Source: an uncultured Eubacteriales bacterium (GTDB lineage Bacteria; Bacillota; Clostridia; TANB77; CAG-508). From it: a DNA stretch of 64,000 nucleotides. The stretch is from NCBI GenBank assembly GCA_949840345.1, contig CATKWX010000005.1, forward strand, positions 31,977 to 95,976, read 5' to 3'. This document shows positions 1,251 through 63,608 of the stretch, in pieces. The position numbers and the translations under genes are program-made. How positions within the stretch are numbered: the first letter of the stretch is position 1; every line of letters begins with the position of its first letter. Under the pieces are notes generated by a model. The model was not told the origin of the DNA and did not search any database. It was given only the letters and a program-made list of their open reading frames with translations.

Positions 1251-1273
1251 GGGCGCAAGCATGCGCCCCTACA
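1251..1273 (+). repeat. REP-like GC hairpin + CTACA tail (subfamily S3)
   Basis: gggcgca-agca-tgcgccc-ctaca. Confidence 0.8.
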
Positions 1274-1339
1274 GCGTGTGATATGTTAATCAAAAAGACG
1301 ATTTTTTATATGATAAAAAGATAAGGACTCTTGTCCTTA

Positions 1340-1810
1340 TTAAAATTTATAATTATTCCTATCTGCTCTTTCATCGAATTCTCTATCAAATTGTTCATTT
1401 TTATAAAACCAGTCTGTTTTTTTATCTTTTGTACTTCCCTTTCTGTTTTTGTTTATAGCAATATCAACTACAGTTGCTAATGCTATTATTACAGCTATAA
1501 ATGATATGAATACATTAAAAGCTTGCATTGTACCTAATTGTTCTCCATTTTGTACTTGAATAAATGCATTTACTATGTCTTTTCCGAAGTACCAACCATA
1601 AGATACCATATACAATATTGCTCCAATTAGTTGTCTTCTAACTATTAAAACTATACACAATAATGCAACAAAAAGCATTATTATTTCTGCTGTTAGATCT
1701 GGCACTGCAAATCCTATATCTATATTTAGTGAAGTTGTTACTGCTACTACTACTCTAAATATCCAAAATAGTCCTGCAAACATTGTTATTAAATAACTTA
1801 TTAATGACAT
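1340..1810 (-). CDS. small integral membrane protein, function unknown
   Basis: ORF 1340..1861 trimmed to ATG 1810 (GGAGGAG 5 nt upstream). The 17 upstream codons are a read-through of a GC hairpin repeat. Several hydrophobic helices. Confidence 0.6.
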   Translation of the reverse strand: MSLISYLITMFAGLFWIFRVVVAVTTSLNIDIGFAVPDLTAEIIMLFVALLCIVLIVRRQLIGAILYMVSYGWYFGKDIVNAFIQVQNGEQLGTMQAFNVFISFIAVIIALATVVDIAINKNRKGSTKDKKTDWFYKNEQFDREFDERADRNNYKF

Positions 1811-1850
1811 AATTTCTCCTCCATTTTTTATTGAGTATTTCTTCGAAGTT

Positions 1851-1875
1851 CGGACGACCAATGGTCGCCCCTACA
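1851..1875 (+). repeat. REP-like GC hairpin + CTACA tail (S4)
   Basis: cggacgacc-aat-ggtcgccc-ctaca. Confidence 0.8.
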
Positions 1876-1901
1876 AATCGACATATTTTCTGCTTTGTTT
1901 T

Positions 1902-59773: not shown

Positions 59774-59899
59774 ACATTCCTCCTAAAACTTAAATATTTC
59801 TTTGAAATTTAAGGCGTAATTCGTTATTGTAAGACATTTAATGCATGCCTATACATCGATTACGCCTATATTATTTATGTTAATTTTGTTTTATTTTCA

Positions 59900-62539
59900 C
59901 TATGGTGTTGCAGGTGTTGGTACTACTGGTGACGGTGTAACCGCCGGTGGTGTTGGACTTGGTGTTGGCGTCGGAGTTGGTGTTGGACTTGGTGTCGGAG
60001 TTGGGCTTTCACTAGGTAGTGGTGATGGACTTGGTTCTGGTGATGGCGATGGACTTGGTTCTGGTGATGGACTTGGTTCTACAATTGGCTCTGTATGAAC
60101 ATCACAAGTTTCCTCTGGTAACATATATTTTGCATCTGCTGCTTTTTCCCAAGCTCTATCTGTATCACTGTTTGGTCTTGTAATAAATACTCTTTCTATT
60201 GCATCTGGACAATAATCTGTTGCTATTTTGTATTTTTCTGTTTCTCCCTCTATCAAACATACCTTCTCTTTAACGTGACAGTCACAACTTTTTGATGGTA
60301 CAGTTCCTTTTACGAATTCTTCAGAATATGCTCTATTTCCTCTTGGATCCTCTCTACATAAATCTGTAGCAAGTAATCCTGAGTCTCTACAAACTGTTGC
60401 TGATGTGATGTTACCTGGCTTTTGGAAATTCTTTGCTTCTAATCCTTGGTGTGCTTTTTTCATAACACGTCCCCATATATATCCTGAAACATTAGCATTA
60501 CGAGGTACTTCTAACATATCATCATATCCATACCAAGTAGCAGCAGAATAATATGGTGTAAATCCGCAAAACCATCTTTCCCAGTTATCTGTTGTTCCTG
60601 TCTTACCACAAGTATCCATATTTGGTATTTTTACGCCTAAGGAAGCTGCTGTTCCTGAATTTACAGGTCCTCTTAATATACTTTTTACTATATATGCATT
60701 CTCTTCAGACATTACTCTTCTATGTTCTTGTTTTTCTTCTGCATTTAATATTATTTGACCATTAGCATCTTCTACTTTTGTATAAAGAATTGGTGTTACA
60801 TATACTCCGTCATTTGCAATTGTAGAATATGCTGCAGCCATTTCATAGGTTGTTGCACCTTGTGTTAATCCACCTAATGCTGATGCTGGATTTTCATCTC
60901 TTTCATCTACTGTTGTTATTCCTAATTTCTTTAAAAACTCTATAGCATTTTTAGGTCCTAATTTATTTATCATTTTTACTTCAGGAATATTTCTTGATAC
61001 TCTAACAATTTCTCTAACTGGCATAAGTCCATTATATCCACCTGTATCATTTCTTGGTGTATATCCACCAGATAATGGAGTATCGTCTACTACCGTTGCT
61101 GCAGTAATTAACCCTGCTTCTAAACTTGGTGCTATAACTGCTAGTGGTTTTATTGAGGAACCCGGTTGATGCGGTGTTTGTGTTGACCTATTTAGTCCTC
61201 TTGGTGTTTTTTCTCCAAAGCCTCCAACTGTTGCAACAACATGCCCTGTTCCATTTTCTACTATCGTCATTGCAGATTGAGTTTTATAGTACTCATCTGT
61301 ATCATTTCCATCTGCATCTTTTATTTTTTTATTTGACCTATATATGAATTCAGTTTTAGCATATTCCTCTTCTAATGCCGTTTGGATTGATGTAACTTGT
61401 GTTGAATATATTGTTAATCCACTACTATACACAATATTTTCTACTTCTTTACGATTTAGCTCTGGATATTTTTCTTGGTAATCTTTTATAACTTGCTCTA
61501 TTACAGCATCTACATGATATGAATAATTATTTTCGCTAATAGTTCCTTTTGTGAATACTAATCCATTATTTACTTTTTCTACAGCTACACGATATTCTTC
61601 TTCTGTTATCTTTTTTAAATCTGCCATTTTTTCTATAACAGTTAATGTTCTAGATTTTATTCTTTCCCTCATTTCATCACTATCTTCAAAAGGTTTATAT
61701 AGATTCGGTGAATGGTTTATTCCAGCAATAAAGGCTGATTCTGCTAGATCTAGTTCAGCAGCAGTTTTATTAAAGTATAATTTTGCTGCCAATTGCACAC
61801 CATATACATCTTCTCCAACGAATATTCTATTTAAGTATAATTCTAATATTTCATCTTTTGCTTGTGATTTTGTTTTTTCTTTTCGTAATTCTTTTTCTAA
61901 GTTTAATGCTCTTGCAATTTCTTTTATTTTTCTTGATGCATCTCTTTCATCTTCTTTAGTTACATTCTTTATTAATTGTTGTGTTATTGTACTACCACCA
62001 AAAGATGAATTTCCAAATATATATTTGAAGGTTGCAGCTGCAGTTCTCTTAAAATCTACACCATCATGATCATAAAATCTTTCATCTTCTATAGAAATAA
62101 ATGCTAGTGGCAAGTATTTACTCATTTGGTCTAATGTTATACTTTCTCTTTTTTCGTTTGCATTTAATGTAGCTATTACATTACCTTCTGAATCTTTAAC
62201 TACACTATTCTCATTGCTTGTTCTTAATGCTTCTAGGGAAACCGTATATTTTTTAAACATTCCAAATAATATTCCTGCTCCTATTGCAGCAACTATTAAA
62301 AGTAATACGAATATTCCAATTAATGAACATATAACAATTTTCTTTTTATTATATTTTCTTTTAGTATTTTTTGTGTTTGCTTCTTTTCCTGCTTTATTAG
62401 GTTTAATACCTTTTCTAGTTCTATTTGCACTAGTTCCTTTATTTGTACTAACTTTTCTATTTGTATTTGCTCTTCTTGTCATATTAGTTTTTTTATTTGC
62501 ACTAGTTCTTCTCGTATTTCTTCTGTTATTTTCTTGCAT
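59900..62539 (-). CDS. class A penicillin-binding protein (glycosyltransferase + transpeptidase) with Pro/Ser/Thr-rich tail
   Basis: GT51 motifs (EDERFYDHDG, GGSTITQQL), transpeptidase SSIK, and a C-terminal EPSPSPEPSPSP..TPTPTP tail. Confidence 0.92.
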   Translation of the reverse strand: MQENNRRNTRRTSANKKTNMTRRANTNRKVSTNKGTSANRTRKGIKPNKAGKEANTKNTKRKYNKKKIVICSLIGIFVLLLIVAAIGAGILFGMFKKYTVSLEALRTSNENSVVKDSEGNVIATLNANEKRESITLDQMSKYLPLAFISIEDERFYDHDGVDFKRTAAATFKYIFGNSSFGGSTITQQLIKNVTKEDERDASRKIKEIARALNLEKELRKEKTKSQAKDEILELYLNRIFVGEDVYGVQLAAKLYFNKTAAELDLAESAFIAGINHSPNLYKPFEDSDEMRERIKSRTLTVIEKMADLKKITEEEYRVAVEKVNNGLVFTKGTISENNYSYHVDAVIEQVIKDYQEKYPELNRKEVENIVYSSGLTIYSTQVTSIQTALEEEYAKTEFIYRSNKKIKDADGNDTDEYYKTQSAMTIVENGTGHVVATVGGFGEKTPRGLNRSTQTPHQPGSSIKPLAVIAPSLEAGLITAATVVDDTPLSGGYTPRNDTGGYNGLMPVREIVRVSRNIPEVKMINKLGPKNAIEFLKKLGITTVDERDENPASALGGLTQGATTYEMAAAYSTIANDGVYVTPILYTKVEDANGQIILNAEEKQEHRRVMSEENAYIVKSILRGPVNSGTAASLGVKIPNMDTCGKTGTTDNWERWFCGFTPYYSAATWYGYDDMLEVPRNANVSGYIWGRVMKKAHQGLEAKNFQKPGNITSATVCRDSGLLATDLCREDPRGNRAYSEEFVKGTVPSKSCDCHVKEKVCLIEGETEKYKIATDYCPDAIERVFITRPNSDTDRAWEKAADAKYMLPEETCDVHTEPIVEPSPSPEPSPSPSPEPSPSPLPSESPTPTPSPTPTPTPTPSPTPPAVTPSPVVPTPATP

Positions 62540-62619
62540 TTGTATTTCCTCCTTACTTAAGGCTATAACGATTTTATTATATTACATATATAATAAAAAA
62601 TAAAGTAATTTTGCAAAAT

Positions 62620-63494
62620 TTATATTATATTTATATAATCTTCTAAAATATCATATATGTTTGTTACTAATTTTGCTCCTTGTTTTATTAATTCGTTTGT
62701 TCCTATTGAATTAGGGCTAGTTACATTTCCGTGGAATTGAATATACATTTCTACCTTGTTCTAATGCAAAATCCGCTGTTATTAATGAACCACTATTTTT
62801 ACTTGCCTCTACTACTAAAACTCCAAAAGATAATCCACTTATTATTCTATTCCTTGCCGGAAAATTCATAGGTTCTGGTCTTGTTCCAACAGCATATTCT
62901 GAAATGATTAGTCCTCCGATTATTAATAATATCATTATATAATTTTGCGTTTTCAGCTGGATATACTATATCTAATCCATTTCCAACTACTGCAATAGTA
63001 GTTCTATTTGCGTTTAAAGCTCCCATGTGAGAACAAGTATCTATTCCTTTTGCTAGTCCACTTACAATATTAATATTTTTCTTTGCTAACATATATGCAA
63101 AAGTTTTTGCAATTTTTTTGCCATATTCACTTGCACTCCTCGCTCCAATTATTGCAAAACTAGTTTTTTGTAGTACATTCGTATTTCCCTTTGCATATAA
63201 AACAATTGGTGCGTCATAAATATTTTTTAAAATATTAGGATATCTCTTATCATTAATTGAAATAATGTTTATGTTATTTTTATAATTATATTCCAAATAT
63301 TTATCTAAATTATCCTTATTTTTAGGATTAAATAGTATTTCTACTTTTGTTTTATCTTTTAGTACTTTTAGAGCTTGCTCTTTATCTATATTCCATAAGT
63401 TTTCTATACCATATTCTTTTATTAAATTTAGTTTCTCTATTAGAGTTATCCCTTCTAATTTTGATAACCATATCCAATATTTGTTTTTATCCAT
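62620..63494 (-). CDS. dprA: DNA processing protein DprA; needs two +1 shifts at in-frame CGG 62916-62918 and 62729-62731
   Basis: Joined product: ..YPAENAKLYNDIINN-G-GLIISEYAVGTRPEPMNFPARNRIISGLSFGVLVVEASKNSGSLITADFALEQGRNVYSIP-G-NVTSPNSIGTNELIKQGAKLVTNIYDILEDYINII, stop at 62620-62622. Matches the DprA family end to end. Confidence 0.85.
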
Positions 63495-63554
63495 AGGAAG
63501 TCCTCTTTCCTAAGGCCCTAAAATAATTTCTTTTCCCCCACCAAATAATTATTA

Positions 63555-63608
63555 CGGGCACAGTGGTGTCATAACCTAACGGGTATTCCCACAAACGGTG
63601 CCCCTACA
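63555..63608 (+). repeat. long REP-like element (S5)
   Basis: cgggcacagtggtgtcataacctaacgggtattcccacaaacggtgcccctaca. Confidence 0.85.

Follow-up and report, generated by a model that had tools for sequence, protein, structure and literature searches.

GTAG-tagged REP-type hairpins in a low-GC Clostridia genome and a RAYT-like transposase family as their likely partner

The window analyzed here, a 64-kb stretch of the genome of an uncultured Eubacteriales bacterium (Clostridia; TANB77; CAG-508), carries numerous short GC-rich hairpins that share an unpaired GTAG tag. Our analysis indicated that these hairpins are probably repetitive extragenic palindromic sequences (REPs) of the GTAG-tagged type, moved by a partner of the REP-associated tyrosine transposase (RAYT) type, with a strand bias originating from the replication fork. 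This reading builds on the anatomy of the elements, their excess over chance, the covariation of their stems, their distribution among other genomes, the differences between strains, RAYT homology, and REP pairs lying inside transposase genes. Studies of REP/RAYT systems, including those with inverted REP doublets replicating as a module (REPINs), have so far dealt almost entirely with Proteobacteria. The GTAG-REP catalogue of Di Nocera et al. (2013) comprises Proteobacteria, Cyanobacteria, Chloroflexi, and the PVC group, with no Firmicutes or Clostridia in its main text (PMC3733652), and RAYT Group 1 genes have been recorded in Clostridia (PMC5581495). Firmicutes are not mentioned in the founding RAYT papers, and a literature search that left subscription journals largely outside turned up neither REPs nor REPINs for Firmicutes or Clostridia; the first-pass annotation of this sequence likewise knew of no REP/RAYT system described at such a density in Clostridia-like genomes. 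As far as we found, this is the first REP-type family described for the class. It adds a GTAG-REP population that shapes the spacers and some of the proteins of many gut and rumen species.

The heptamer CCCTACA occurs 26 times on the plus strand of the window and never on the minus strand, compared with 2.9 ± 1.5 occurrences (maximum, 6) in dinucleotide shuffles. At 21 of the 26 sites, it abuts a hairpin with a DNA folding energy of -3 kcal/mol or lower; 20 of these were scored as such, with energies from -3.9 to -11.2 kcal/mol, and the remaining one, at 17387, has a stem beginning one base further on. Weak stems were found at two sites (6549 and 14821) and no hairpin at three, of which 34307 looks like a chance occurrence within an open reading frame (ORF), and 40229 and 56279 are tag remnants adjoining full copies. 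With tail variants (CCCTACT, TCCTACA, CCCCACA, CCCTACG, and GTAT/GTAA tags) and two reversed copies included, the catalogue comes to 32 elements, approximately one per 2 kb, and further copies lie past the window (about 70 kb of genome covered). Thirty of the 32 are intergenic and the other two lie in frame within genes, so the number, density, and mostly intergenic placement originally claimed hold. The GTAG strand is the minus strand in 30 elements and the plus strand in two (17262-17286 and 37607-37631); the strong orientation bias already noted therefore stands, although its count of 29 of 32 is corrected to 30.

Read on the gene-sense (minus) strand, each element starts with (T)GTAG and runs directly into a GC-rich stem starting GGG or GGA. 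The common CCCTACA tail of the first-pass annotation was thus right in its conserved, unpaired CTAC(A) tag, whereas CCC makes up the final three bases of the stem. An exact GTAG tag is present in 26 of the 32 elements, GTGG in one, and GTAA, GTAT, or a decayed tag in five. The units are 23-27 nt long, with stems of 6-10 bp and loops of 3-7 nt, and a long form reaches about 50 nt with an outer stem of 6+2 bp. Four full copies of the long form are present, and two further copies have only its 3' tail (35020-35062 and 58180-58220); folded as one tight hairpin, it gave weak z-scores against shuffles, with only the outer stem being consistent. All of the stem families named earlier, including this long form, were recovered. 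Under a strict definition (exact GTAG, an immediate stem of at least 6 bp with at least 65% GC and at most one mismatch, and a loop of 3-8 nt), 14 elements were found on the minus strand and one on the plus strand, compared with none in twenty first-order Markov simulated windows, and GTAG was the most frequent 5' tetramer among all GC-rich hairpins. GTAG-type REPs have been defined by a GT[AG]G tetranucleotide 0-2 nt upstream (5') of a hairpin rich in GC, with a basal stem of 7 or more paired bases (PMC6006769). This definition describes the present units well, as they combine GTAG or GTGG at that distance with a GC-rich stem that either closes in a short loop or, in the long form, belongs to a longer bulged hairpin, which bears out the REP layout first proposed. 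The organization of REPINs or bacterial interspersed mosaic elements (BIMEs), mostly inverted pairs at fixed spacing, was not found in the window, where only two doublets occur (17218-17286 and 37561-37631), both with inward-facing GTAG ends. A flank described as often accompanying the copies, ATATTGCAAAC (given earlier as GTTTGCAATAT), adjoins 6 copies, and the window has 13 matches to it at no more than one mismatch against 3.9 expected.

No Rfam family reached its gathering score across the whole window, and no tRNAs were found in it. Readings as CRISPR, attC, or small RNA were rejected given the lack of regular spacing, of an array, and of an Rfam match. Rho-independent termination could be considered for GC-rich stem-loops downstream of genes, and the copy behind rpsO (17359-17386) passes a terminator scan. 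However, a T-run on the gene strand follows only one of approximately 16 REPs in positions 1-20000, the other minus-strand terminator-like sites of that region (e.g., 11957-12003, 9091-9116, and 9199-9231) are different, AT-richer, T-tailed hairpins, and the GTAG tag has no part in termination. For want of T-runs, the intrinsic terminator reading is largely refuted, and we consider it very improbable.

The same units occur far beyond the window. A GTDB scan of one genome per species with the pattern TGTAGGGNNCGRCGYCCTCGNCGNNCC returned at least 119 stretches (L017-L135); among the matches listed, the hosts include Ruminococcus flavefaciens, Gemmiger formicilis, Acutalibacteraceae, Monoglobus, Geosporobacter, and many other Clostridia, with a host GC content of 26-67% and unrelated flanks. 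Identical 26-27-mers recur in distant Clostridia, and approximately 1 Mb of fetched loci yielded 393 REP-like elements. In 133 copies aligned from among the listed matches, the free stem pairs 8-25 and 9-24 are each Watson-Crick in 130, whereas 67 and 38 would be expected if the positions were independent, and all four pair types occur. A purine-purine mismatch is conserved in the middle of the 9-bp stem (G.A in 90, A.A in 14, and A.G in 15 of the 133 copies), at a position that is fully paired in the window copies GGAACGGCG and GGAACGACG. Because of this covariation and the conserved mismatch, the unit can be described as an imperfect palindrome with a fixed tag, matching the definition of a REP (PMC6006769, PMC3733652). 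The earlier view that structure rather than sequence is selected finds support in the compensatory pairing, but the identical 26-27-mers shared across distant Clostridia show that sequence is conserved as well.

Comparison with close relatives revealed turnover of these units. Three strains about 98% identical to the window (L002, L003, and L006) are collinear with it except at repeat clusters. Of the REPs in the spacer at 26575-26792, the window has three, whereas L002 has two that differ from these and L003 has yet another set. In a relative about 90% identical (L009), the reversed copy at 17262-17286 is missing and three REPs precede rpsO at a site that is empty in the window, while the REP just after rpsO is kept. 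Since these strains and L009 differ by whole units, the unit of gain and loss is a single REP of about 25 nt.

A candidate partner emerged from the genes overlapping these elements. At about nine loci (among the at least 119 listed), phmmer linked ORFs overlapping TGTAGGGNNCGRCGYCCTCGNCGNNCC to E. coli YafM; this bait served only as a lead, and the matches were verified by NCBIfam, Pfam, PDB, and fold comparison. The REP-overlapping ORFs matched REP_Tyr_transpos as their sole NCBIfam hit (E values, 1e-17 to 1e-19) and Y1_Tnp in Pfam. At least 1408 homologues were found at an E value of 1e-10 or lower, some of them named 'REP element-mobilizing transposase RayT', and the family proteins are about 165-190 amino acids long. 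The only PDB sequence match was 4ER8, the E. coli TnpA-REP, in an alignment that pairs H-I-H (the HUH motif), IWQKSFHDHIIRN with IWQPRFWEHAIRN, and YIDNNP with YIYINP; the family segment IWQxSFHDHIIRN lies against IWQPRFWEHAIRN of 4ER8. The residues with which TnpA-REP contacts GTAG (W94, Q95, E/D100, H101, and R104), together with HUH and Y..NP, show little or no variation among 30 homologues, all of them from genomes other than that of the window. An AlphaFold model (pLDDT, 74.7) had 4ER8 as its best fold match, followed by ISDra2 TnpA and IS608 TnpA. This large RAYT-like Y1 family is likely the partner of the REPs described here.

The common enzyme superfamily and the logic of subterminal hairpins also bring to mind ordinary insertion sequences of the IS200/IS605 type (tnpA with or without tnpB), whose ends or miniatures resembling palindrome-associated transposable elements (PATEs) could produce such hairpins from elsewhere in the genome, and IS200-type TnpA is common in Clostridia (PMC6006769). 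However, lone hairpins of 23-27 nt with GTAG are not left-end/right-end pairs, the overlapping proteins group with RAYTs (the sole REP_Tyr_transpos hit, 4ER8 in both sequence and fold, and Y..NP), no tnpA or tnpB is adjacent to the elements in the window, and tnpB was not adjacent at any RAYT locus examined. We regard this origin as quite unlikely and favor a RAYT-type partner.

The way in which REPs and these RAYT-like genes overlap is highly ordered. Among the best 120 of the at least 1408 homologues, 119 have a REP-coded peptide in each of two loops, one after strand beta1 and the other after the HUH strand, so placed that the pair brackets the HUH segment. The two loops are mostly of matched types: VGDGVLDVP with GTSRTPSPT, VGNAALGVP with GTPRAAFPT, VGEAALGLP with GRPRAASPT, and VGADIIRP with GRMISAPT. 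For the first of these, the forward REP GTAGGGGACGGCGTCCTCGACGTCCC is read as VGDGVLDVP in the post-beta1 loop, and its reverse complement as GTSRTPSPT in the loop past the HUH strand. In DNA, both arms match one and the same GTAG-stem-loop-stem unit but are inverted relative to each other, so that their GTAG ends point outward; the stems are identical, the loops differ by at most one base, and the arms are 154-160 nt apart in L136, L138, and L139. Such a cognate pair was found inside the ORF in L136, L138, L139, L141, L142, L143, and L145. The search for a RAYT flanked by inverted copies, proposed with the original observation, was thus rewarded with a partner in other genomes only, and the REP pair is located inside the gene rather than around it. 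No REP pair within a RAYT ORF was found reported in the literature, again with subscription journals largely outside the search. The low-confidence segments of the AlphaFold model, residues 42-45 and 97-109, coincide with both REP-coded loops, which is consistent with the loops being tolerated surface inserts. Some homologues have two or three tandem REPs in loop 1, and several are chimeras joined at or within a REP (e.g., P0027, P0060, and P0077). Two RAYT-bearing loci, L143 and L145, connect these genes to the window directly, as their intragenic unit GTAGGGGTCGGCGTCCTCGACGACCC is exactly that of window positions 26740-26766; dispersed REPs belonging to several stem families are also numerous in both genomes, and a dispersed copy in L145 (1012-1037) is one loop base away from the intragenic unit. 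In L139, the gene's type GGGCGGAT-ATC-ATCCGCCC occurs outside the gene only in a duplicated cassette just upstream.

This cassette is one of several signs that the REP-bounded segment behaves as a module. The second cassette of L139 lies upstream of the gene, and its homology extends exactly from TGTAG to CTACAGTTTCG. In L024, three paralogues lie within 8 kb between dlt genes (759-5711; dltA-[RAYT]-dltB-[RAYT]), one of them with the cassette deleted, and in L108, a low-GC relative, a decayed gene has lost its core and kept its REP pair. Such remnants raise the question of whether the window hairpins are what decayed RAYT genes left behind and not independently spreading units; the L108 pair is surrounded by a recognizable decayed RAYT remnant, and the core is gone from one L024 copy. 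However, no RAYT-like coding remnant was found in any frame around the 30 same-orientation copies of the window, a remnant would leave inverted pairs with outward GTAG ends, of which the window has none, and a density of one per 2 kb far exceeds any plausible number of gene insertions. Debris was consequently rejected as the main source, and we consider it extremely improbable.

The RAYT-like genes are translationally coupled within housekeeping operons. In five Ruminococcus-type loci, the order is dnaA-dnaN-S4-recF-remB-[RAYT]-gyrB-x-gyrA, which places recF-remB-[RAYT]-gyrB near oriC, with gyrB starting 3-4 nt past the RAYT gene, and orthologous recF-remB-[RAYT]-gyrB slots hold enzymes of different REP types. 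E. coli REPs are known gyrase-binding sites, which makes the gyrB neighborhood notable. The genes of L136, L138, L139, L140, and L142 lie at about 10001-10528, and in L143 the gene (10001-10492) is located between prfA and sua5. This placement resembles the single-copy, host-embedded habit of RAYTs (PMC5581495).

The proposed mechanism would proceed as follows. The strand reading 5'-GTAG-hairpin would fold once single-stranded, and a RAYT-type HUH/Y1 transposase would bind the hairpin, with the conserved WQxxFxDHxIR segment predicted to read GTAG; single-stranded TGTAGGGGTCGGCGTCCTCGACGACCCG is a candidate strand- and GTAG-dependent substrate of family members such as P0202. By cutting and rejoining single-stranded DNA, the enzyme could add, remove, or exchange REP units, mostly beside existing REPs and in intergenic spacers. 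The partner gene in Clostridia would itself carry an in-frame inverted pair of its own REP type, one REP encoding the post-beta1 loop and the other the loop past the HUH strand, and the REP-bounded cassette of about 200 bp would act as a REPIN-like module that may be duplicated, deleted, or swapped. For the window copies, a RAYT encoded elsewhere in the source genome would be responsible; as no such gene lies in the window or the further 5.8 kb, mobilization in the source genome is inferred only.

A bolder version, which we put forward tentatively and hold to be possible rather than probable, is an 'inside-out' REPIN-RAYT, in which the gene holds its own mobile element and the singlets of the window are its output on the lagging-strand template. 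The enzyme's substrates would then lie within its own gene, with the catalytic HUH strand encoded by the cassette of about 200 bp, so that cutting might duplicate the cassette, as in L139, or delete it and switch the enzyme off, as in L024 and L108. Exchange of cassettes between paralogues would carry REP specificity along, as may be reflected in the chimeras with REP junctions.

The orientation of the window copies can be related to replication. In each of the sixteen 4-kb bins, the plus strand has a negative GC skew, and 49 of the 67 ORFs are on the minus strand; therefore, the minus strand carries the leading-strand sequence. Almost all GTAG strands of this lineage would thus be G-rich leading-strand sequence and serve as the template of the lagging strand. 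The active strand of IS608 and ISDra2 is likewise located on the lagging-strand template, and their cleavage is directed by a short guide on the 5' side of the hairpin foot (PMC3333891). By analogy, we infer that the bias toward one orientation has its origin at the replication fork, with the GTAG strand acting as the lagging-strand template. Since the single-orientation singlets track the leading strand, this coupling to the fork is directly testable. The bias is 9:1 in the same region of other strains, but it is less pronounced in further relatives of low GC content, and only the lineage of the window has copies that almost all point one way.

The same orientation could be selected by transcription if the hairpins were host RNA elements, namely blocks to 3'-to-5' exonucleases or processing sites at the ends of minus-strand genes, as are E. 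coli REPs. Indeed, 30 of the 32 copies are intergenic, many located 4-66 nt past a stop codon and sense to the flanking minus-strand genes; between same-direction genes of the other loci, 103 elements are sense and 54 antisense; and REPs occupy orthologous sites in the relative of about 90% identity. On the other hand, copies also occur upstream of genes, abutting a ribosome-binding site (55862-55885), and inside two coding sequences, and those beside plus-strand genes (35036, 37561, and 40151) are not flipped. Identical units in unrelated contexts across families and inside transposase genes, together with the whole-unit differences between strains, further argue against a purely regulatory element. 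We therefore consider this explanation unlikely, although a host RNA role could coexist with a transposon origin, and selection at the RNA level may contribute to orientation since the bias is weaker or absent in other genomes.

Several results weigh against RAYT-driven mobilization coupled to the fork. Searches of six-frame ORFs with phmmer and jackhmmer found no RAYT or TnpA gene in the 64-kb window, as the first-pass annotation had already stated, nor in the further 5.8 kb or the strain loci L001-L016. The family matches fall at or below curated cut-offs, with scores of 63-70 bits against 80 in NCBIfam and 20-23 bits against 23 in Pfam. The commonest family of the window, GGAACGGCG..CGCCGTTCC, was not seen inside a RAYT gene, where only a close N-type (GGAACGCCG..CGGCGTTCC) occurs. 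Recombination between REPs, instead of transposition, could account for the strain differences. The REPs of the RAYT-bearing loci L143 and L145 have mixed orientations without bias, so the enzyme alone fails to explain the bias, and the replication strand could not be separated from transcription, with discordant classes of 7 versus 12 among the 393 elements in approximately 1 Mb of other loci. Finally, single-orientation singlets with two doublets are unlike the known REP families, which are mostly head-to-head dimers (PMC3733652). The RAYT of the source lineage was likewise not met in two protein searches and two metagenome scans: a cassette built on the commonest REP of the window had no match, and the scan for a V-type cassette returned one RAYT on a contig of 41% GC. 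A synthetic query derived from the L108 remnant led to V-type RAYTs of genomes with 42-44% GC.

Compared with known systems, the elements share with E. coli REPs and BIMEs an unpaired GTAG 5' of a GC-rich imperfect palindrome and, within the roughly 70 kb covered, a numerous, mainly extragenic distribution, and the partner shares with TnpA-REP (4ER8) a Y1 HUH enzyme with a common fold and GTAG-contact motif. In E. coli, however, REPs flank a single tnpA-REP gene and mostly form alternating inverted pairs (BIMEs), whereas in Clostridia the pair is in frame inside the gene and the window copies are one-orientation singlets of several stem families. The Pseudomonas REPIN-RAYT system of Bertels and Rainey is alike in having an inverted REP doublet as its replicating module, strain-variable REPs, and a transposase among housekeeping genes. 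The single-copy, vertical inheritance of the Pseudomonas enzyme may also have a parallel, as the five Ruminococcus-type loci use one slot, whereas L024 has three copies. Pseudomonas REPINs are non-coding and flank the RAYT, while in Clostridia the cassette itself codes for the HUH core of the transposase, and the gene is translationally coupled in recF-remB-[RAYT]-gyrB or prfA-[RAYT]-sua5 operons. The GTAG-REP superfamily (PMC3733652), in which intragenic REPs are known in general, agrees in tag, stem length (5-13 bp), loop length, clustering, occasional in-frame intragenic copies, and compensatory stem changes, but its predominating head-to-head dimers are not the rule in the window. IS608 and ISDra2 are likewise mobilized by a hairpin-recognizing Y1 HUH transposase, and their use of the lagging-strand template fits the strand bias of the window; they are autonomous insertion sequences whose tnpA (often with tnpB) lies between two different ends, left and right, on one strand, unlike a lone hairpin of about 25 nt. 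For RAYT Group 1/subclass 2.1 ('TIRYT'), to which the present family may or may not belong, no REP-like sequences were found near the gene (PMC6006769), and a C-terminal extension is described that the short Clostridia proteins lack.

Because the REP pair lies within the ORF, each RAYT gene declares its own REP type, and specificity can thereby be studied on hundreds of natural pairs of enzyme and substrate whose loop peptides match. In metagenome-assembled genomes of Clostridia, REP-coded peptides and REP-extended ORFs also repeatedly give rise to spurious or odd protein annotations.

The window has a GC content of 26-31% and a core Firmicute gene content, including nusA-infB-rbfA, rpsO-pnp, proS, cysS, uvrC, spore genes, and an agr system. 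It is contained in an ENA metagenome contig of 104,450 bp (ERZ17760912:ERR3199580_325), where 31,860 has to be added to a window position to obtain that of the record. The individual elements are given below on the minus strand unless stated otherwise. The first copy, at 1251-1273, is TGTAG followed by GGGCGCA-TGCT-TGCGCCC; GGGCGCA-TGAT-TGCGCCC with the tag AGTAG is found at 2926-2948, and GGGCGTA-TGAT-TGCGCCC at 26620-26642, within the strain-variable cluster. The same cluster has GGGCTGG..CCCGCCC at 26673-26698. GTAGGGGTCGGCGTCCTCGACGACCC, identical to the pairs within the RAYT genes of L143 and L145, is found at 26740-26766, and a decayed GGACGACC-TTT-GGTCGACC with the tag GTAA at 26812-26838. 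TGTAG with GGAACGGCG-CCCT-CGCCGTTCC lies at 3007-3033, where the stop codon of the upstream gene is 17 nt away, and the same stem recurs at 13246-13272, in tandem with GGGCGC-ATGAAAA-GCGCCC at 13297-13320. Two further copies share the second arm: the GTAGGA variant GAAACGGCG-CCCT-CGCCGTTCC at 11771-11797, and GGAGCGGCG-CCCT-CGCCGTTCC at 35036-35062, which is followed by a long-form 3' tail and has plus-strand genes downstream. GGGCGAT-TTTA-ATCGCCC with the variant tag TGTAT occupies 8456-8478.

Stems with an ATT loop comprise TGTAG with GGGCGACC-ATT-GGTCGTCC at 1852-1875; the same stem with the tag CGTAG at 55862-55885, where it abuts the ribosome-binding site of ispH (LYTB); the same stem reversed on the plus strand with the tag GTAA at 37607-37631; CGTAG with GGGCGAGC-ATT-GCTCGTCT at 52346-52369; and the plus-strand CGTAG with GGGCGAGC-ATT-GCTCGTCC at 17262-17286, the copy missing from L009. 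The latter forms the inward-facing doublet with GGGCGGGC-CTCTAA-GTCCGCCC at 17218-17244, and the other doublet joins the copy at 37607-37631 to GGGTCGGCG-TCCT-CGATGACCC at 37561-37587. A TCCT loop is also present in GGGCCGGCG-TCCT-CGACGACCC at 14924-14950 and, with a GTGG tag, GGGTCGGCG-TCCT-CGACGACCC at 25077-25103. A decayed GGAATAGAC-CAAC-GTCGTTCC lies at 14796-14821, GGAACGAC-GCCCAAA-GTCGTTCC at 24956-24983, and a composite of the decayed GGAACAGAC..GTCGTTCC and a long-form 3' tail at 58180-58220. The copy at 17364-17387, 4 nt after the rpsO stop, is the sole terminator-like one in 1-20000, and GGAACGACTT-CCA-AAGTCGTTCC at 56220-56247 has its tag remnant at 56273-56279. Long-form copies are located at 8498-8549 (TGTAG with GGGCAC, a variable core, and GTGCCC), 40151-40202 (tag remnant CCCTACA at 40223-40229), 55910-55964, and 63556-63608, and L011 shows a further copy shortly beyond the window end, at about 64606. 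The two in-frame elements are a weak-stem REP in infB (6526-6549), read as VGATNTRP in the N-terminal region of IF-2, and one in the gene for a 684-amino-acid surface protein (11342-11368), read as VGNDALVVP in the context AVGNDALVVPN; both are read in the V-G frame seen in loop 1 of the transposases.

Other repeats accompany the REPs. A tandem heptad, (TGAATAR)n on the minus strand, gave 16 matches to TGAATAGTGAATAAT at no more than two mismatches, against 0.9 expected, at sites including 2895-2923, 8575-8596, 17895-17909, 25009-25044, 26603-26617, 26703-26717, 26795-26809, and 63613-63641. Fourteen of the 16 adjoin REPs or trail stop codons, the exceptions being 17895-17909 and a plus-strand match at 12176-12190; with its period of 7 nt, the repeat puts stops (TGA, TAG, and TAA) into all three frames, and the motif also adjoins REPs in L047, L117, and L118. 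An AT-rich palindrome, CAAAATTTGC..GCAAATTTTG or CAAAATTC-TTC-GAATTTTG, lies between the heptads and the TGTAG of a REP at 2869-2893, 8551-8573, 24985-25007, and 26768-26787, so that heptads, AT hairpin, and REP follow one another as in a BIME-like mosaic. An element of about 130-190 nt with the ends AAAAAAATCTGCCACTCC ... GGCGGAGTTCGATTTTTTT is found in L002 (12680-12810) and in L002 and L003 at about window position 11940, with partial copies in the window (25105-25135 and 35062-35095) and an occurrence in L059. Its presence varies at 98% strain identity, as it is inserted at window position 14852-14861 in L002, L003, and L006, and one version contains a REP. A 133-bp insertion with the terminal inverted repeats GGCGAAATAAGTTTGAAAAA ... 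TTTTTCAAACTTGG, present in L003 (4778-4910) and L008 at window position 22744/22745 and missing from the window, is a separate element resembling miniature inverted-repeat transposable elements. A structured motif of about 55 nt, ACCTTGCCYCCYTTACTTAARGGRGGTGGCACG(A)TAGTGCCGGRGG plus CAGCTCCCTTGRATAAGGGAGCCAAG, without an Rfam match even at E values up to 1, has two minus-strand copies (28323-28405 and 52545-52651), located upstream of proS and of a veg-like ORF.

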